Assembly (NCBI GenBank): GCA_947623685.1
Contig: CANQHF010000002.1
Span: 17,913 to 81,912, forward strand
Length of the DNA stretch: 64,000 nucleotides
DNA from: an uncultured Bacilli bacterium
GTDB lineage: Bacteria > Bacillota_I > Bacilli_A > RF39 > UBA660
Reading direction: 5' to 3'
Part shown: piece after piece, positions 523 through 18,471 of the stretch
How positions within the stretch are numbered: position 1 is the stretch's first letter
How the letters are laid out: every line of letters begins with the position of its first letter
Notes under the pieces: generated by a model
What the model was told of the DNA's origin: nothing
Seen by the model: only the letters and a program-made list of their open reading frames with translations
Databases searched by the model: none
Program-made: the position numbers and the translations under genes

Positions 523-1080
523 TTAGTCTCCTTTAGTAATAGGGCAAGTGTCACTATCACTAATTTTATAAAGTCTACTACTGTCGTCAATAGTATAATG
601 AGGTATAAATTCAAGATTATGTTCGTTCTCAGCTTTAGACGTAGCTTTATAAGTAAATGCTCCTTCATGTAAACCATAGTTAAATGTAAGGATCTTATAA
701 GTTTTATCTAACATTTGAGTAACAACATCAATAGTCTTGATATACTTATCATTACCAATTACACCGAAGTCGCCTTGAGTGATATTTTTCTTTTCTTCGT
801 CTAACTTAGCGTTAGGTAAAGCATGAATTAAAACCTCTTGACTGCAGCATAATGATACAACTTTAATAGTTGCGTCTTCGCCGTCAATAGTTTGCATACC
901 TGCAGTTTTACCACGACGTCCGTCGAACTCGATGTCTCTAACTTCTGGTGTAATAGTCATTTCAACACCACCACGAGTAGGTCCTAAAATTTGCTCGTTT
1001 TCTTGTCCTAGATTTAAGACAACAACACCTTCGTCAATTTGAATTTTTTTTACATCGTTTTCAGTAAAAAATCTTAACAT
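523..1080 (-). CDS. Major tail protein
   Basis: 185 aa. Sits after the tail-completion genes and before the chaperone-like ORF. Size and composition are typical of siphovirus tail tube proteins. Confidence 0.55.
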   Translation of the reverse strand: MLRFFTENDVKKIQIDEGVVVLNLGQENEQILGPTRGGVEMTITPEVRDIEFDGRRGKTAGMQTIDGEDATIKVVSLCCSQEVLIHALPNAKLDEEKKNITQGDFGVIGNDKYIKTIDVVTQMLDKTYKILTFNYGLHEGAFTYKATSKAENEHNLEFIPHYTIDDSSRLYKISDSDTCPITKGD

Positions 1081-1976: not shown

Positions 1977-2280
1977 GATTATTAGCTAGTCCTGTCAAAG
2001 TTATTTCTGTTATCTCACTATCTACCTCATAAGAACGTAAGATTTTATAAGTAACGTCCTTATATTTAACGTGAGTATGTTTATCTTCGTCAAAGTCCAT
2101 AGTTCTAATTTCAAAACTTTTCTCTGGCTTAAAACCTGCAGCTTGCGCCTGATAAAATTCATTACGTTTAATAGCTATTTTATTAGCATAAACTTTTGTT
2201 TCTTTAAAAAAATAATGAGGTTTGTTTAACTCGTCAAGTGTTTCTATTTCTTCTAGTAAATATAAGACATCACTCCACAT
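1966..2280 (-). CDS. Head closure / head-tail adaptor protein
   Basis: About 105 aa starting at MWSDVLYLLEE. Lies downstream of the connector gene, the typical adaptor position. Confidence 0.5.
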   Translation of the reverse strand: MWSDVLYLLEEIETLDELNKPHYFFKETKVYANKIAIKRNEFYQAQAAGFKPEKSFEIRTMDFDEDKHTHVKYKDVTYKILRSYEVDSEITEITLTGLANNHGE

Positions 2281-2599
2281 TATCAGTCGCCTCACTTATA
2301 TAAAAGTCTGTAAGAGATAATTCTGTTCTTAATGTTTCATAAGAGTTACGGAATTTCTCATAATTTTTATTATCTAACCCAAACTCGGCTTTTAAATAAA
2401 GAAGAACGGCCGAAATAATAAGGCCGTCTTCTTCACTATTAGCCATTTTAGAAGTGATACCGTTTCTTATAAGATCTTGTCGACAAGCCGTTATGAGAGT
2501 TTTAATTTCAGTATTTATAACATCGTCGTCTATGGTTATACGAAGAAAACCACGAGCTTTTTTTAAAAATTCTTTGCTTATAATTGTTTTTTCTTTCAT
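2270..2599 (-). CDS. gp6-like head-tail connector (DNA packaging) protein
   Basis: Likely start is MKEKTIISKEF, preceded by AAGGAGTGA. About 109 aa, first gene after the capsid region. Confidence 0.5.
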   Translation of the reverse strand: MKEKTIISKEFLKKARGFLRITIDDDVINTEIKTLITACRQDLIRNGITSKMANSEEDGLIISAVLLYLKAEFGLDNKNYEKFRNSYETLRTELSLTDFYISEATDNVE

Positions 2600-2619: not shown

Positions 2620-2988
2620 TTATTCAGAGACTAGTTCTAACCCTGTCAAATCTAATTTCTTTGTAGTTTTACCATTTGTAAATGTTATTGTTTGAGTATT
2701 TGAGTGTAAGTTTACTACCAAGATACCATCTTTGTCTAAAGTACCAGAGCCTTTAGACTTTGCGTCAGATAAATCATAAGTTACAGTATCTCCTGTTGTT
2801 GCTTCATTAACTTTAATAGCTAAAAAGTTTCCTTTAGCATTTTTACTAAATTTAGGGAAACTAGCAACATACTTTGATTTTCCTATTACTTTGTTACCTT
2901 CAATTTGGGCTTCTTGTAGTTCACTTATTTGTGTACCTAAAACTTCGCCCTCGGGTAAACTTACTGTTACCGCTTTTAAGGGCTCGCT
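2620..2988 (-). CDS. 122-codon start-less ORF in the +1 frame relative to the major capsid gene. Candidate frameshift-appended C-terminal (Ig-like/decoration?) domain.
   Basis: Hand translation from codon AGC (2988..2986): SEPLKAVTVSLPEGEVLGTQISELQEAQIEGNKVIGKSKYVASFPKFSKNAKGNFLAIKVNEATTGDTVTYDLSDAKSKGSGTLDKDGILVVNLHSNTQTITFTNGKTTKKLDLTGLELVSE*. There is no in-frame ATG or GTG, and the only in-frame TTG lies near the 3' end (too short an ORF). Without this ORF the module would have a 367-nt gap. Confidence 0.6.
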   Translation of the reverse strand, partial: SEPLKAVTVSLPEGEVLGTQISELQEAQIEGNKVIGKSKYVASFPKFSKNAKGNFLAIKVNEATTGDTVTYDLSDAKSKGSGTLDKDGILVVNLHSNTQTITFTNGKTTKKLDLTGLELVSE

Positions 2989-4147
2989 AGGGTGTAACTA
3001 AGTCAGTAATTTCAAGAACGGCAAATGCTTTAGTATCCATAACATGACCGTCGCCAAATGCTAAAGCTCTATGTATGATTAAACCTTGGCTAAATTTTTC
3101 ATGTTCTGAGCTAGCAATTTGTGGAGCCATATTATAGTTATACCAATATCTCTTACCATAACCAAATAAGATTTTACCTTTTGGTGCAGCGTCAGAGATA
3201 ATAACAGGTTTCTTTAATAACATCTCAGTTGTGTCATTATAAATAGGGTGTCCGTCTTCTCCTACCATACCTTCAATATAAGTGTGGAAAGTTTCAGTAT
3301 TGATAACATAGCTTGCACGTTTACCATAAGCACGACGAATTTTTCCTTTTAAGTCAGCAAGATTTTTATGTCCTAAACTAGCAGCTTCAGGAACAGTTAC
3401 TTTTTGATCTCCATAATCTTTAGTAAATAAACCTTCTGCTTCATCATTAGTTCCTTTTCCGTTCATAACTTGATCTTCAAGTTCTAAAGCTAAAGCAAGA
3501 GCTAATTCTGATACAACGATTTCTTTAAATTCTTCAATACTTTCAGCAGATAAACCAACGCCTAACTCAATTTTTGCGCTTGTTCTCTTAGATCCAAATG
3601 TAATTTCTCCAGTAGTACCACCGTTAGCTTTAATATCGTCGCCGTCTTTATCTTTATTAGCTCCGATAGAAGTTAAGTTACCAACACGTAAAGTTCCTTT
3701 TACGTTTTTGATATTGATAAAACTCATAACATCTGATACTTCGCGCATTTCAGTTATAATTTCACTGTCTAATTCTTCCGGTACAACAGCTTGTCCGTTT
3801 TCTAACGTAACACCTCTTGTTTCTCTACCACCAGACATCATGTATTTTAAAAATGATCTTACTTCTTTTGACATACTAGATTTCTTTTCTTCTGTATTCA
3901 CTTTTACATCTCCTCCTTCATCTTCTACGTCTGTTCCTGGTGCTGCTTCTTCGCTTTCTGGAGCAATTTCTCCAGTTTCTAAGCTACGAGCAATTTTCAC
4001 TCTTTCTTCAAGTTGGTTTTGTTCTTTATTTAAACTGTCTAATTCTTTGTTAATTTCTTCTAAATTAACATCTTTTTCTGTGTCATTTAATAGTGATCTA
4101 ATTTCAGCTTTTCTAGCTTTAATTTCATTTAATCTTTTTTCGTTCAT
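2987..4147 (-). CDS. Major capsid protein, HK97 family
   Basis: 386 aa. N-terminal coiled-coil delta-like region (KARKAEIRSLL...NQLEERVK). Follows the prohead protease in the canonical HK97 order. Confidence 0.85.
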   Translation of the reverse strand: MNEKRLNEIKARKAEIRSLLNDTEKDVNLEEINKELDSLNKEQNQLEERVKIARSLETGEIAPESEEAAPGTDVEDEGGDVKVNTEEKKSSMSKEVRSFLKYMMSGGRETRGVTLENGQAVVPEELDSEIITEMREVSDVMSFINIKNVKGTLRVGNLTSIGANKDKDGDDIKANGGTTGEITFGSKRTSAKIELGVGLSAESIEEFKEIVVSELALALALELEDQVMNGKGTNDEAEGLFTKDYGDQKVTVPEAASLGHKNLADLKGKIRRAYGKRASYVINTETFHTYIEGMVGEDGHPIYNDTTEMLLKKPVIISDAAPKGKILFGYGKRYWYNYNMAPQIASSEHEKFSQGLIIHRALAFGDGHVMDTKAFAVLEITDLVTP

Positions 4148-4193: not shown

Positions 4194-4814
4194 TTAAATT
4201 TTTGTTTTTGCTATACATATATCTCTAAGTCTAGCTTGCTCCAAAGCTCTTTTTTCTTTTTCGTACTCCACCTCAAAGAAAGACCTAGCCGAAATACTTG
4301 TCGTATCATAGGCTGGTATATCAACCGCTGATACGTCGTATAGCTTCTTAATGCGCTTTATCGTTCTAGTGTGAGTAGCTGCGTCATATTCGTCGCCGTC
4401 TACATCTACAACAAACGCAAAGCTCATTTTATCTATGTAGCCACCTCTTATATCTTCTAAAAGGTTTCTACCATATTCAGTACCCCCAAGATATGCGTTC
4501 ATTTCCATACAGACGTCATTAAGCGATAATTTTAAAGTGTTATTTCTAATTCTAGCAGCAACACGTCCGCCGTGATTATAATTAAAAATGACATCTGACA
4601 TATCGCAATTATCGAAAGCATGTCGATCTATTTGTTCATAGAACTTAACACCTTCATATTCCCAAAGACAGGTAGGTGTATTAAAGACTACAGGTACACC
4701 ATGCACATAGTCTTGATTTTCTCCGTCTTCGCTTCTTTGTTCTTTTAATTCAAAAGAAGAAAAAACTCGAATTTCACGTCCTGTCTTATTTATTAGATTT
4801 TGTTTCTTTGTCAT
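4194..4814 (-). CDS. Prohead maturation protease, HK97 family
   Basis: 206 aa between portal and capsid. Has the NYNHGG region typical of HK97-type (S78) proteases. Confidence 0.75.
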   Translation of the reverse strand: MTKKQNLINKTGREIRVFSSFELKEQRSEDGENQDYVHGVPVVFNTPTCLWEYEGVKFYEQIDRHAFDNCDMSDVIFNYNHGGRVAARIRNNTLKLSLNDVCMEMNAYLGGTEYGRNLLEDIRGGYIDKMSFAFVVDVDGDEYDAATHTRTIKRIKKLYDVSAVDIPAYDTTSISARSFFEVEYEKEKRALEQARLRDICIAKTKI

Positions 4815-13012: not shown

Positions 13013-13025
13013 AAATCATCACCCC

Positions 13026-13364
13026 CTAATCTTTAAGCAAAGACTCTGAATTTTTTTCTAATTGATTTATAATATGTTCTATGTCTTTAAATGCTATATA
13101 TTTACCAGCGATACATAATTCTTCTGGATTTATAGAATTAGTTAAAATAGGCTTTTTTTTAAGAATATTTTGTTGTTGCTTAATATAATCTTTAGTAGAT
13201 TTCGTTATAAAAATAAGCCTTAATTCACGTTTGTTATGAATATCAATACCTTTTTTATAATCAGCTATAAGTTCGTTTTTTTGTTTTAATACTTGGTTAA
13301 AAACAAAACTTGTTATTACCACCCCAATTAGAGTACCTAATAAAGTCAATAATATATTACTCAT
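13026..13364 (-). CDS. Hypothetical N-terminally anchored membrane protein
   Basis: 112 aa with an N-terminal TM helix (ILLTLLGTLIGVVITSFVF). Confidence 0.45.
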   Translation of the reverse strand: MSNILLTLLGTLIGVVITSFVFNQVLKQKNELIADYKKGIDIHNKRELRLIFITKSTKDYIKQQQNILKKKPILTNSINPEELCIAGKYIAFKDIEHIINQLEKNSESLLKD

Positions 13365-17343: not shown

Positions 17344-18471
17344 ATGAAAATAATCAAATATAAAGGAATCACAATTTATAAAGATAAGCCAACTAAAGAT
17401 GGTAGATGCTACTATTTTAAAAAGTATAAAAATGGGAAGCACTATTCTTCTGCTAAATACAGAACCACCGAAGAAGTAGAAAAAGCCTATTCAATGTTTG
17501 TATTAAAAAATGAAAATCCTATAAATAAAAGATTTGATTTAGTAGCTAAAGATTATTTCGAATATATGTACAAAACAAAGAAAGAATCAACTGTGTATTG
17601 CTACGAAATGGCATATAACAAGCATATATACCCTTATTTTAAGAGTTTTTATATAAATAAGGTAAATATTCAAGATATACGTAAATGGGCTGAAAATATG
17701 GAAAAAAAAGGTCTTTCAATTAGATATTTAAATAAATGCTATGACATTCTTAAAACCATATTTGATTTTGCAATGAAAAATTATTCTTTAAATTCTAATC
17801 CTGTGCAAATTTTTGGTAGATTTCAAAAGAAAAATGATGAAGTTATAAAAGATGAAGAAAAAATAAGATACATAACTTTAGAAGAATTTAATAAATTTAT
17901 ATCTGTTATTACTGTTCCTTTATGGAAAACTTTCTTTATAACATTATTCTACACTGGATGTCGTAAGTCTGAATTACAAGCTTTGACCTGGAATGATATT
18001 AATTTTAATAACAATGAAATAACAATAGATAAAATAATATCTGTTAAAACAACAGAACATTATAAAATTACGAATACAAAAAACGCCGTTAATAGAAAAA
18101 TTAAAATGAGTAAAACATTAAGAGATTGTTTACTAGAATATAAAAATGAAGTTATGAAATATAAAGATTATTCAGATGATTGGTTTGTATTTGGAAATAC
18201 TAGATTCTTACCCCAAACCAACATAGATAGAAAAAAGCATGAATATTTTAAATTATCTAATGTTAGAGAAATAACAATACACGAATTTAGACACAGTCAT
18301 GTTTCTCTTTTGATCAATGAATATGTTAAATCAGGGCAAACGGACACCGCTAAATTTTTTCTAATGGTGTCAAATCGAATGGGACATTCTATTGATGTTA
18401 TGCAAAAAACATATATGCATTTATTCCCAACAATTCAAGATGAAATCGTTGATTTATTAGATAATTTATAA
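17344..18471 (+). CDS. int: Tyrosine integrase
   Basis: 375 aa. Catalytic residues are in TGCRKSELQAL (R), IHEFRHSHVSLL (HxxR) and GHSIDVMQKTYMHL (H, Y). Adjacent to the ssrA 3' end. Confidence 0.9.
   Translation: MKIIKYKGITIYKDKPTKDGRCYYFKKYKNGKHYSSAKYRTTEEVEKAYSMFVLKNENPINKRFDLVAKDYFEYMYKTKKESTVYCYEMAYNKHIYPYFKSFYINKVNIQDIRKWAENMEKKGLSIRYLNKCYDILKTIFDFAMKNYSLNSNPVQIFGRFQKKNDEVIKDEEKIRYITLEEFNKFISVITVPLWKTFFITLFYTGCRKSELQALTWNDINFNNNEITIDKIISVKTTEHYKITNTKNAVNRKIKMSKTLRDCLLEYKNEVMKYKDYSDDWFVFGNTRFLPQTNIDRKKHEYFKLSNVREITIHEFRHSHVSLLINEYVKSGQTDTAKFFLMVSNRMGHSIDVMQKTYMHLFPTIQDEIVDLLDNL

Follow-up and report, generated by a model that had tools for sequence, protein, structure and literature searches.

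A probable programmed +1 ribosomal frameshift at a CCC-stop that would add a beta-sandwich domain to a prophage major capsid protein

The major capsid protein gene of a prophage in an uncultured Bacilli bacterium very probably carries, at its last sense codon, a programmed +1 ribosomal frameshift site. The prophage lies in the 64,000-nucleotide (nt) stretch of DNA analysed here, hereafter the window (assembly GCA_947623685.1, contig CANQHF010000002.1, positions 17,913 to 81,912 of the forward strand). The capsid gene occupies positions 2987..4147 on the minus strand and ends GTT ACA CCC TAG, with the stop codon at 2989..2987; beyond it the +1 frame stays open for 122 codons. Both points, first made in a reading of the window from its sequence only (the sequence-only reading), are borne out by direct reading and translation, and the computational checks suggested in that reading all favour its interpretation. 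It is most likely that two products are made from the capsid gene here and from each of the capsid, tail or decoration genes in at least 31 related prophages of the rabbit gut; public gene calls list instead 'hypothetical proteins' of ~100-170 amino acids (aa) with arbitrary starts.

The 0-frame open reading frame (ORF) comprises 386 codons followed by TAG, and encodes an HK97 fold preceded by a delta-like coiled-coil region at the N-terminus. It matches PF05065 (Phage_capsid) in Pfam over residues 118-379 with an E-value of 6.4e-31, and phrog_10 (major head protein) in PHROGs with an E-value of 3.5e-44. In the slip site ACA CCC TAG (2987..2995, minus strand), a threonine codon would occupy the E site, a rare proline codon the P site and a stop the A site. 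Across the junction the +1 frame reads TTA CAC CCT AGC GAG CCC ... GAA TAA, with AGC at 2988..2986, GAA at 2625..2623 and the terminal TAA at 2622..2620. The extension ORF thus delimited (SEPLKAVTVSLPEGEVLG...LELVSE by conceptual translation; 2623..2988, minus strand) is shut upstream by a TAG three codons ahead of the capsid stop, so that a shift is possible only inside GTT-ACA-CCC-TAG. No ATG, GTG or TTG is present in the extension frame until 33 codons from its end, and no Shine-Dalgarno sequence precedes it in the window. The earlier statement that these 367 nt contain no ORF with a start codon holds apart from a 33-codon ORF opened by that TTG, the only canonical-start ORF on the minus strand within 2623..2986, which is merely the tail of the same +1 frame. 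No other gene overlaps the 366 nt of the extension on either strand.

Chance cannot account for an opening of this length. In the 57 ORFs of the window, whose GC content is about 30%, the 4356 out-of-frame open runs average 7 codons; the longest has 66, and none comes to 100. Under a composition model, 125 open codons have P ~1.6e-4. Of the 513 proline codons in the window 15 (2.9%) are CCC, fewer than for any other proline codon, and the capsid gene uses CCC once, as its last sense codon. Stop codons in the same 57 ORFs are TAA in 36 cases, TAG in 15 and TGA in 6. In-frame readthrough or reassignment of TAG was rejected, the 0 frame closing again 21 codons past it. A -1 shift was rejected as well: only 4 codons are open in that direction, and the window lacks an X XXY YYZ heptamer there. 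Sequencing error was discarded on the grounds that 32 independent junctions agree. The junction matches no Rfam family, and no GGAGG-like motif stands upstream of the slip site in the window.

The mechanism that we propose starts with peptidyl-tRNA-Pro on the rare CCC in the P site and the TAG stop in the A site. Slow termination would give the tRNA time to slip, and a hairpin beginning 6 nt after CCC would probably add to the delay. The tRNA would re-pair one base forward, on CCU, whereupon AGC would be read as serine and the 122 codons of the +1 frame translated. Most ribosomes would terminate and yield the 386-aa capsid protein (42.6 kDa); a minority would make a 508-aa form of 55.5 kDa (...EITDLVTP-SEPLKAV..., the conceptual product of join(4147..2990, 2988..2623)), bearing a C-terminal 13-kDa beta-sandwich domain. 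The predicted tryptic peptide over the junction is AFAVLEITDLVTPSEPLK, its counterpart from the terminated capsid protein being AFAVLEITDLVTP. Both forms would co-assemble, leaving the domain on the capsid surface at sub-stoichiometric occupancy, where it would most likely serve as a weak adhesion module for host-surface or gut-mucus glycans. Surface display and adhesion are proposed by analogy with SPP1, Hoc and the immunoglobulin-like (Ig-like) adhesins of gut phages (PMC6316719, PMC13370021). We infer the occurrence of shifting, its efficiency, the co-assembly, the surface exposure and the adhesive role alike. The ~55-kDa species that had been foreseen for virions would be the unprocessed long form. 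The S78 prohead protease encoded nearby probably removes the N-terminal region of the capsid protein, which would change the expected masses; if it cleaves the delta-like region (~100 residues), as in HK97-like systems, the long form would run at ~44-45 kDa and not at 55.5 kDa, and the short form at ~31 kDa.

A scan of one genome per species found 35 loci, all in metagenome-assembled genomes of uncultured Bacilli or Clostridia from the rabbit gut; 31 of them and the window make up a set of 32 +1 junctions. At 32/32 of these an ORF ending NNN CCC TAR is followed at once by the domain in the +1 frame; the stop is TAG in 20, TAA in 12 and TGA in none, and CCC is preceded by ACA or ACT in 28. The comparison of related prophages that the sequence-only reading had suggested thus finds the CCC-stop and the open +1 frame kept in all 31 loci. 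A second +1 copy, in locus L017, likewise keeps NNN CCC TAG/TAA followed by the domain. The ORFs upstream of the +1 junctions fall into 12 clusters unrelated by BLASTP. They include major head proteins of six PHROG families (phrog_10, phrog_1328, phrog_544, phrog_267, phrog_422 and phrog_247), major tail proteins (phrog_88 and phrog_820), a lambda gpD-like protein (phrog_909) and two unclassified clusters; tail tube proteins are among the recipients in L017, L018 and L025. Upstream of the ACN codon nothing is conserved, and the preceding 15 nt are unrelated among the 12 recipient clusters.

A search with the 122-aa sequence retrieved 43 protein clusters at 59-90% identity, all of them called as free-standing ORFs of 100-167 aa. 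Their called starts stand at about ten non-homologous positions, or inside out-of-frame capsid sequence; many of the calls begin in meaningless out-of-frame residues that lead into 'LHPS', as TTACACCCTAG reads in the +1 frame. No start codon is conserved among these relatives. Among 50,697 GenBank phage records, neither blastn in distant mode with the region nor tblastn with the 122 aa found anything, and the capsid protein had two remote matches only; a more distant, in-frame copy of the domain matched just two unannotated human-faecal phage contigs. These searches of GenBank phages brought up no cultured phage with the domain. The closest capsid relatives in IMG/VR (L001-L012, 70-77% identity) lack the domain and its slip site: TAA closes their capsid genes, and the slot before the connector gene is taken by an unrelated gene that starts with ATG. 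As a negative comparison, they place the boundary of the inserted sequence among the final few codons of the capsid gene.

Purifying selection acts on the +1 frame, beginning with the codon that directly follows the slip site. The ratio of non-synonymous to synonymous divergence (dN/dS) of the extension has a median of 0.17 over 462 pairs and ranges from 0.11 to 0.35 against the window, with dS often above 1, and no stop codon has accumulated in this frame in the 32 loci. Conservation accompanied by synonymous change begins right after the slip site, upstream of all candidate internal starts. At codons 7, 8, 12 and 14 past the slip site the amino acid is invariant and is specified by 1-4 synonymous codons: Val7 is GTA in 31/31, while Thr8, Pro12 and Gly14 use four, four and three different codons, respectively. 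In the closest relatives capsid and extension have diverged in parallel, with identities of 86-91% and 87-91%.

The GC-rich helix that had been noticed just downstream of the stop is real and forms part of a two-tier predicted hairpin (2947..2983, minus strand; predicted free energy -12.6 kcal/mol) that starts 6 nt after CCC and 3 nt after the stop. It consists of an outer GCCCUU/GAGGGC helix, an A-rich internal loop and an inner GGUAA/UUACC helix; its z score is -2.0, with 5 of 200 shuffles folding equally well. Across the loci the hairpin starts 3-4 nt past the stop. The first 45 nt of the 32 junctions average -12.0 kcal/mol, as against -4.1 for other 45-nt segments of the same ORFs, and the junction is the most stable 45-nt segment of the extension ORF in 23/32 loci. 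Against dinucleotide shuffles, the 29 unique junctions have a mean z score of -2.47, and 25 of them lie below -1.64. Two designs recur: class A (21 loci), with GCCC...GGGC, and class B (10 loci), with GCCACG-N11-CGUGGC. Class A itself has two subclasses, in which the GCCC arm is offset by 1 nt and lies in another codon phase (E-P in one, A-Q in the other). Because the pairs are mostly invariant and the 5' arm carries this offset, column-wise covariation on the junction alignment was dropped in favour of thermodynamic and codon-choice tests. The latter show GC-rich synonymous codons enriched at the hairpin arms only. The Gly14 codon is GGC in 21/21 class A loci and in 0/10 of class B (21/31 overall), and Ala3 is GCC in 20/20; elsewhere in the ORF, GCC and GGC make up ~11% of alanine and glycine codons. 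One locus, L022, has a compensatory GCCCG/CGGGC pair. The loci where the domain lies in the -1 frame or in frame, described below, are without these stems. The hairpin probably stimulates the shift; the evidence for this is good and circumstantial, short of proof. The A-rich internal loop could also pair with a downstream GUUUU to form a possible pseudoknot; this sequence is not universal, class B and two loci of class A having GUAUU in its place. At L043 (2991..3768) the +1 extension is 259 aa long, that is, the domain and ~135 further residues; this is the only +1 locus without a convincing hairpin.

On the sequence comparisons, the same domain is attached in four ways: by a +1 shift, by a -1 shift at an A9 run, by in-frame fusion, and as a free-standing protein. 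In-frame C-terminal fusions occur on major head proteins (P0186, phrog_10; P0192, phrog_544; P0128, phrog_2006), on major tail proteins (P0144, phrog_2645; P0072) and, at L013, on a protease-capsid polyprotein. The fusion proteins match phrog_31690, the family of the domain, at E-values of 1e-8 to 4e-31. These fusions support the sequence-only reading, in which the 122-aa domain is joined to the capsid protein. BLASTP of the 508-aa conceptual product against P0186 gives a single alignment that runs straight over the junction (residues 324-480, E-value 4e-11). At L032 (2978..2995), L037 (2963..2983) and L044 (2981..2998) an A9 run precedes the domain, which is in the -1 frame; at L048 (around 2985..3000) the run is A10 and the domain is in frame. 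The A9/A10 loci may reflect -1 slippage by the ribosome (A AAA AAA), slippage during transcription or polymorphism in run length. L032 and L037 have a capsid of the same family (C-terminus ...GFVRVKK...) as that of L017, which has ACA CCC TAG. That the same fusion is reached by +1, by -1 and by direct joining is hard to reconcile with independent expression of the domain.

As judged from sequence, the slip site, the hairpin and the domain make up a single portable cassette that stands behind a dozen unrelated structural genes. The L017 prophage has two copies, at 566..944 and 2994..3372, behind its capsid and major tail proteins; they are identical at 378/381 nt (99.2%) from T-ACA-CCC-TAG to just past the TAA, and their flanks are unrelated. 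Similarity between domains does not track the recipient family: the capsid of L020, of the window's family at 24% identity, carries a domain at 64% identity, and domains on tail proteins (L017, L018) are at 70%. From the 9-nt slip site and hairpin found behind 12 clusters, the boundaries of the L017 duplicate and the mismatch between domain and recipient, we lean towards the view that the unit [ACN CCC TAR + GC-rich hairpin + 122-aa domain + stop] is an autonomous, horizontally mobile recoding cassette whose signal travels with the domain. Such a cassette would work behind any structural gene and give instant sub-stoichiometric display without an in-frame join. The published view is different: there, chance decides whether an Ig-like domain is inserted in frame or out of frame, and selection for frameshifting follows (PMC5009743, citing Fraser et al.). 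A possible alternative to a mobile signal is that the CCC-stop arose by convergent selection each time a domain had been inserted.

Could the 122 codons be a separate gene, begun at a non-canonical start or by termination-reinitiation and yielding a free decoration protein? Distant family members do look free-standing, at ~125 aa with conserved 'MSLSV...' starts, close relatives are annotated as separate ORFs by public gene callers, and in related phages the slot is taken by a small gene that is unrelated and has a start of its own. We nevertheless regard this as improbable. An independent start, a possibility that the sequence-only reading had itself raised, finds no support in the window, with its missing in-frame start and Shine-Dalgarno sequence, nor in the relatives, whose called starts are not homologous and among which amino-acid conservation begins at the slip site, ahead of every candidate start. 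A separate gene would moreover leave unexplained the invariant CCC-stop in 32/32 junctions behind 12 unrelated genes, as well as the A9-run -1 loci and the in-frame fusions. The existence of such fusions lends some sense to another idea, namely that a 1-nt indel split capsid from domain in a decaying fusion and left the domain unexpressed. This is the least credible of the explanations: dN/dS is low throughout with dS up to more than 1, none of the 32 loci has acquired a stop, capsid and extension diverge in parallel, and the break always falls at the CCC-stop motif, which is unlike a random indel.

Two further explanations accept the frame change and differ on its nature or its use. It is very unlikely that the change takes place in the RNA, through transcriptional slippage that deletes one C at CCC, although the product would be identical (ACA CCU AGC...), the A9 runs of the -1 loci are long enough for RNA polymerase slippage and L048 has its A10 in frame. 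Three C are far fewer than in the homopolymers known to support slippage (general knowledge; PMC5009743), the conserved stop after CCC and the downstream hairpin, spaced for ribosome entry, are typical marks of a +1 shift by the ribosome, and the SPP1 and PSA cases at the same motif are ascribed to ribosomal slippage (PMC6316719, PMC5009743). Transcriptional slippage, at the same very low probability, predicts a fraction of transcripts reading ACACCTAG, and a ribosomal shift uniform ACACCCTAG. A still smaller probability attaches to incidental, functionless shifting at the CCC-stop, with the frame held open by RNA structure or overlap constraints. CCC_UGA gene ends in E. coli do shift at levels of at least 1% without known use (PMC5009743), but no gene overlaps the 366 nt, selection acts on the amino acids along the whole extension, and the domain, with its 304 cluster representatives, can be recognised as a protein family.

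A number of points weigh against a programmed +1 shift that displays an adhesive domain. The shift is predicted from sequence and its efficiency could be very low, while nothing but analogy speaks for the adhesive role. The window contains no tRNA genes from which the tRNA-Pro set of the host could be read. Covariation in the hairpin is thin, with a single compensatory change among mostly invariant pairs; the arms coincide with conserved codons (E-P/A and E-G), which confounds RNA with protein constraints; and L043 (z score -1.4) and the CCAGCCC subclass are only weakly structured. Similarity of the domain to the Ig fold is weak. Finally, the ~125-aa distant members, which look free-standing and have conserved methionine starts, indicate that the domain can work unfused.

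The mechanism proposed for the window is of a known kind, and to judge from its sequence the site belongs to the CCC-stop +1 class, with a rare CCC as last codon, a long startless +1 ORF, conservation, and a major virion protein as recipient. The closest precedent for CCC-UAA/UAG combined with a whole domain is gp17.1* of phage SPP1. Gene 17.1 ends GCT CCC TAA, and the +1 frame adds an FN3 domain of 87 aa, the two products being made in a fixed ratio of 3:1 (PMC6316719). As in the window, a rare last-codon CCC is followed by a stop, re-pairing is on CCU, a whole beta-sandwich domain is placed on a major virion protein, and the phage is that of a low-GC Firmicute. The two cases differ in the recipient (tail tube in SPP1, capsid here), in the domain (FN3 versus phrog_31690) and in the codon before CCC (GCT versus ACA). 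We know of no conserved downstream hairpin reported for SPP1. Listeria phage PSA was described in the sequence-only reading as extending both its capsid and its tail protein at CCC next to a stop. For tsh this is accurate: the gene reads GCC ACA CCC TGA, with the stop in the A site, and gains ~24 aa in the +1 frame (PMC5009743). For cps it is not; the shift occurs at ACA CCC UCC (TCC in the gene), away from a stop and with a 3' pseudoknot, and adds a 47-aa tail containing a HeH-like motif, in a low-GC host where CCC makes up ~5% of proline codons (PMC5009743). PSA and the window share an identical ACA CCC, and PSA resembles L017 in that a single phage has its capsid protein and its tail protein lengthened. 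PSA differs in that its extensions are short and contain no beta-sandwich, its capsid shift is not at a stop, and its stop is UGA where only UAG and UAA are found here.

Capsid extensions by -1 frameshifting are known in Lactobacillus phage A2, in gene 10 of coliphages T3/T7 and in Listeria phages A118/A500, and they are Ig-like in A2 and T3 (PMC5009743). These systems, which L032, L037 and L044 resemble in the -1 frame of the domain at an A9 run, likewise make two capsid proteins from one gene, the long form having a C-terminal surface extension; they differ in the direction and site of the shift, the window having no heptamer and its domain lying in the +1 frame. In-frame fusions resemble the window in the position of the domain and the kind of protein that bears it, P0186 (domain at residues 408-511) being collinear with the frameshift product; in such fusions every subunit bears the domain, whereas a frameshift would supply it to only a fraction. 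The BIG2 domain of phi29 gp8 is an in-frame, C-terminal Ig-like domain on an HK97-fold capsid protein. The prfB gene of E. coli, encoding RF2, has an autoregulatory +1 frameshift at CUU UGA C with an upstream Shine-Dalgarno-like stimulator. There, as proposed here, a P-site tRNA slips by +1 under the influence of a slowly decoded A-site stop; in prfB the stimulator is upstream and the purpose regulatory, whereas here the candidate stimulator is downstream and the outcome would be a second structural product. T4 Hoc is an Ig-like, separate decoration protein. Hoc and other Ig-like phage adhesins, considered in connection with phage adherence to mucus and including those of gut phages (PMC13370021), are non-essential beta-sandwich modules displayed on virions, to which the domain studied here would be comparable. 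Hoc differs in being a separate protein, and its functional parallel to phrog_31690 is inferred only.

The domain belongs to a previously undescribed family, corresponding to phrog_31690 and without a Pfam entry. An AlphaFold2 model of the 122 aa is an all-beta sandwich, with a predicted local distance difference test (pLDDT) of 84.6 and a predicted template modelling score (pTM) of 0.76. The model agrees with the Ig-like fold suggested earlier in being a beta-sandwich, but its likeness to Ig is weak: Foldseek against the PDB gives only weak matches, all Ig, Big or cadherin-like (best E-value 0.026, template modelling (TM) scores 0.3-0.45). Against viral models Foldseek gives strong matches to uncharacterised gut-phage proteins (E-value 2.5e-8, TM score 0.74). 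No Pfam family passes the threshold for the 122 aa, the best being SusG_C with an E-value of 0.066, and Ig families such as Big_2 and FN3 are unmatched; nor do the homologues have a precomputed Pfam match on the domain. A profile search of PDB sequences returned nothing below an E-value of 0.09, hence no solved relative. The match to phrog_31690, of unknown function, has an E-value of 8.3e-9 and aligns residues 27-122 with positions 5-107 of the 107 in the profile. A profile search of 1.84 billion cluster representatives (clusters at 50% identity) gives the family 304 members. The domain matches none of the named Pfam Ig families yet behaves like them. Tandem copies of it are also found in proteins 800-2700 aa long, together with cadherin and Big_13 domains, which suggests that these large proteins are cell-surface or fibre adhesins. 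Among such proteins are P0046 (2272 aa, 8 matched stretches), P0056, P0068 and P0044, some with cadherin, Big_13 or SprB repeats.

At the other extreme, P0087, P0093, P0129, P0133, P0153 and others are of ~125 aa with a conserved N-terminus 'M(S/T)xLSV..D/E'. These distant members are probably genuine free-standing versions of the domain, and possibly separate decoration proteins. At L041 (3001..3483; also in P0008 and P0020) the extension consists of the domain and a C-terminal HeH/SAP-like tail (...VTEIKAQLDKLGIKYDNKATKADLLTLL..., precomputed PF09124), which resembles the HeH-like motif in the PSA capsid +1 extension (L049, 5128..5290).

The junctions provide some 30 natural variants of one +1 site, set in 12 upstream contexts and combining either of two stops with either of two hairpin designs, for testing which elements suffice for CCC-stop frameshifting in low-GC bacteria. 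A compact element for partial-occupancy display on capsids or tails would be useful to phage engineering, where display work already exploits the natural -1 site of T7/K1F (PMC13370021), and the domain adds a candidate adhesion module for phages of uncultured Bacilli and Clostridia.

Upstream of the capsid gene, the prophage encodes a large terminase subunit, a portal protein and the S78 prohead serine protease (4194..4814, minus strand; PF04586 Peptidase_S78, E-value 6e-26; phrog_80). Downstream are connector, adaptor and major tail genes, the prophage leaving the window at its left edge after the major tail gene (523..1080). The prophage integrase is at 17344..18471, in a chromosome of ~30% GC that also has rpoB/rpoC-sized ORFs. 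A second frameshift at the window's own major tail gene was rejected: it ends GGA GAC TAA, without an extension. The one other match to ACNCCCTAR in the window (13021..13029, plus strand) was rejected too, lying on a non-coding strand and being expected by chance.

The head-tail connector gene (2270..2599, minus strand; PF24829, E-value 2.9e-12; phrog_5223, E-value 2.4e-27) has its ATG at 2599, preceded by a Shine-Dalgarno sequence (AAGGAG, 7-nt spacer), and an alternative ATG at 2620 with which the TAA of the extension shares its last A. Shifted ribosomes would end 20 nt before the connector start at 2599 (a gap first put at 21 nt), and unshifted ones 387 nt before it; the point of termination could affect translational coupling to the connector gene. 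The unrelated small genes found between capsid and connector in the closest IMG/VR capsid relatives make this slot a hotspot for accessory head genes. Examples are the slot genes of L001 (4179..4511, MRTYKLVAAINFTD...), whose ATG overlaps the capsid TAA, and of L007 (4170..4379, MLYTLKVVTPFTD...).

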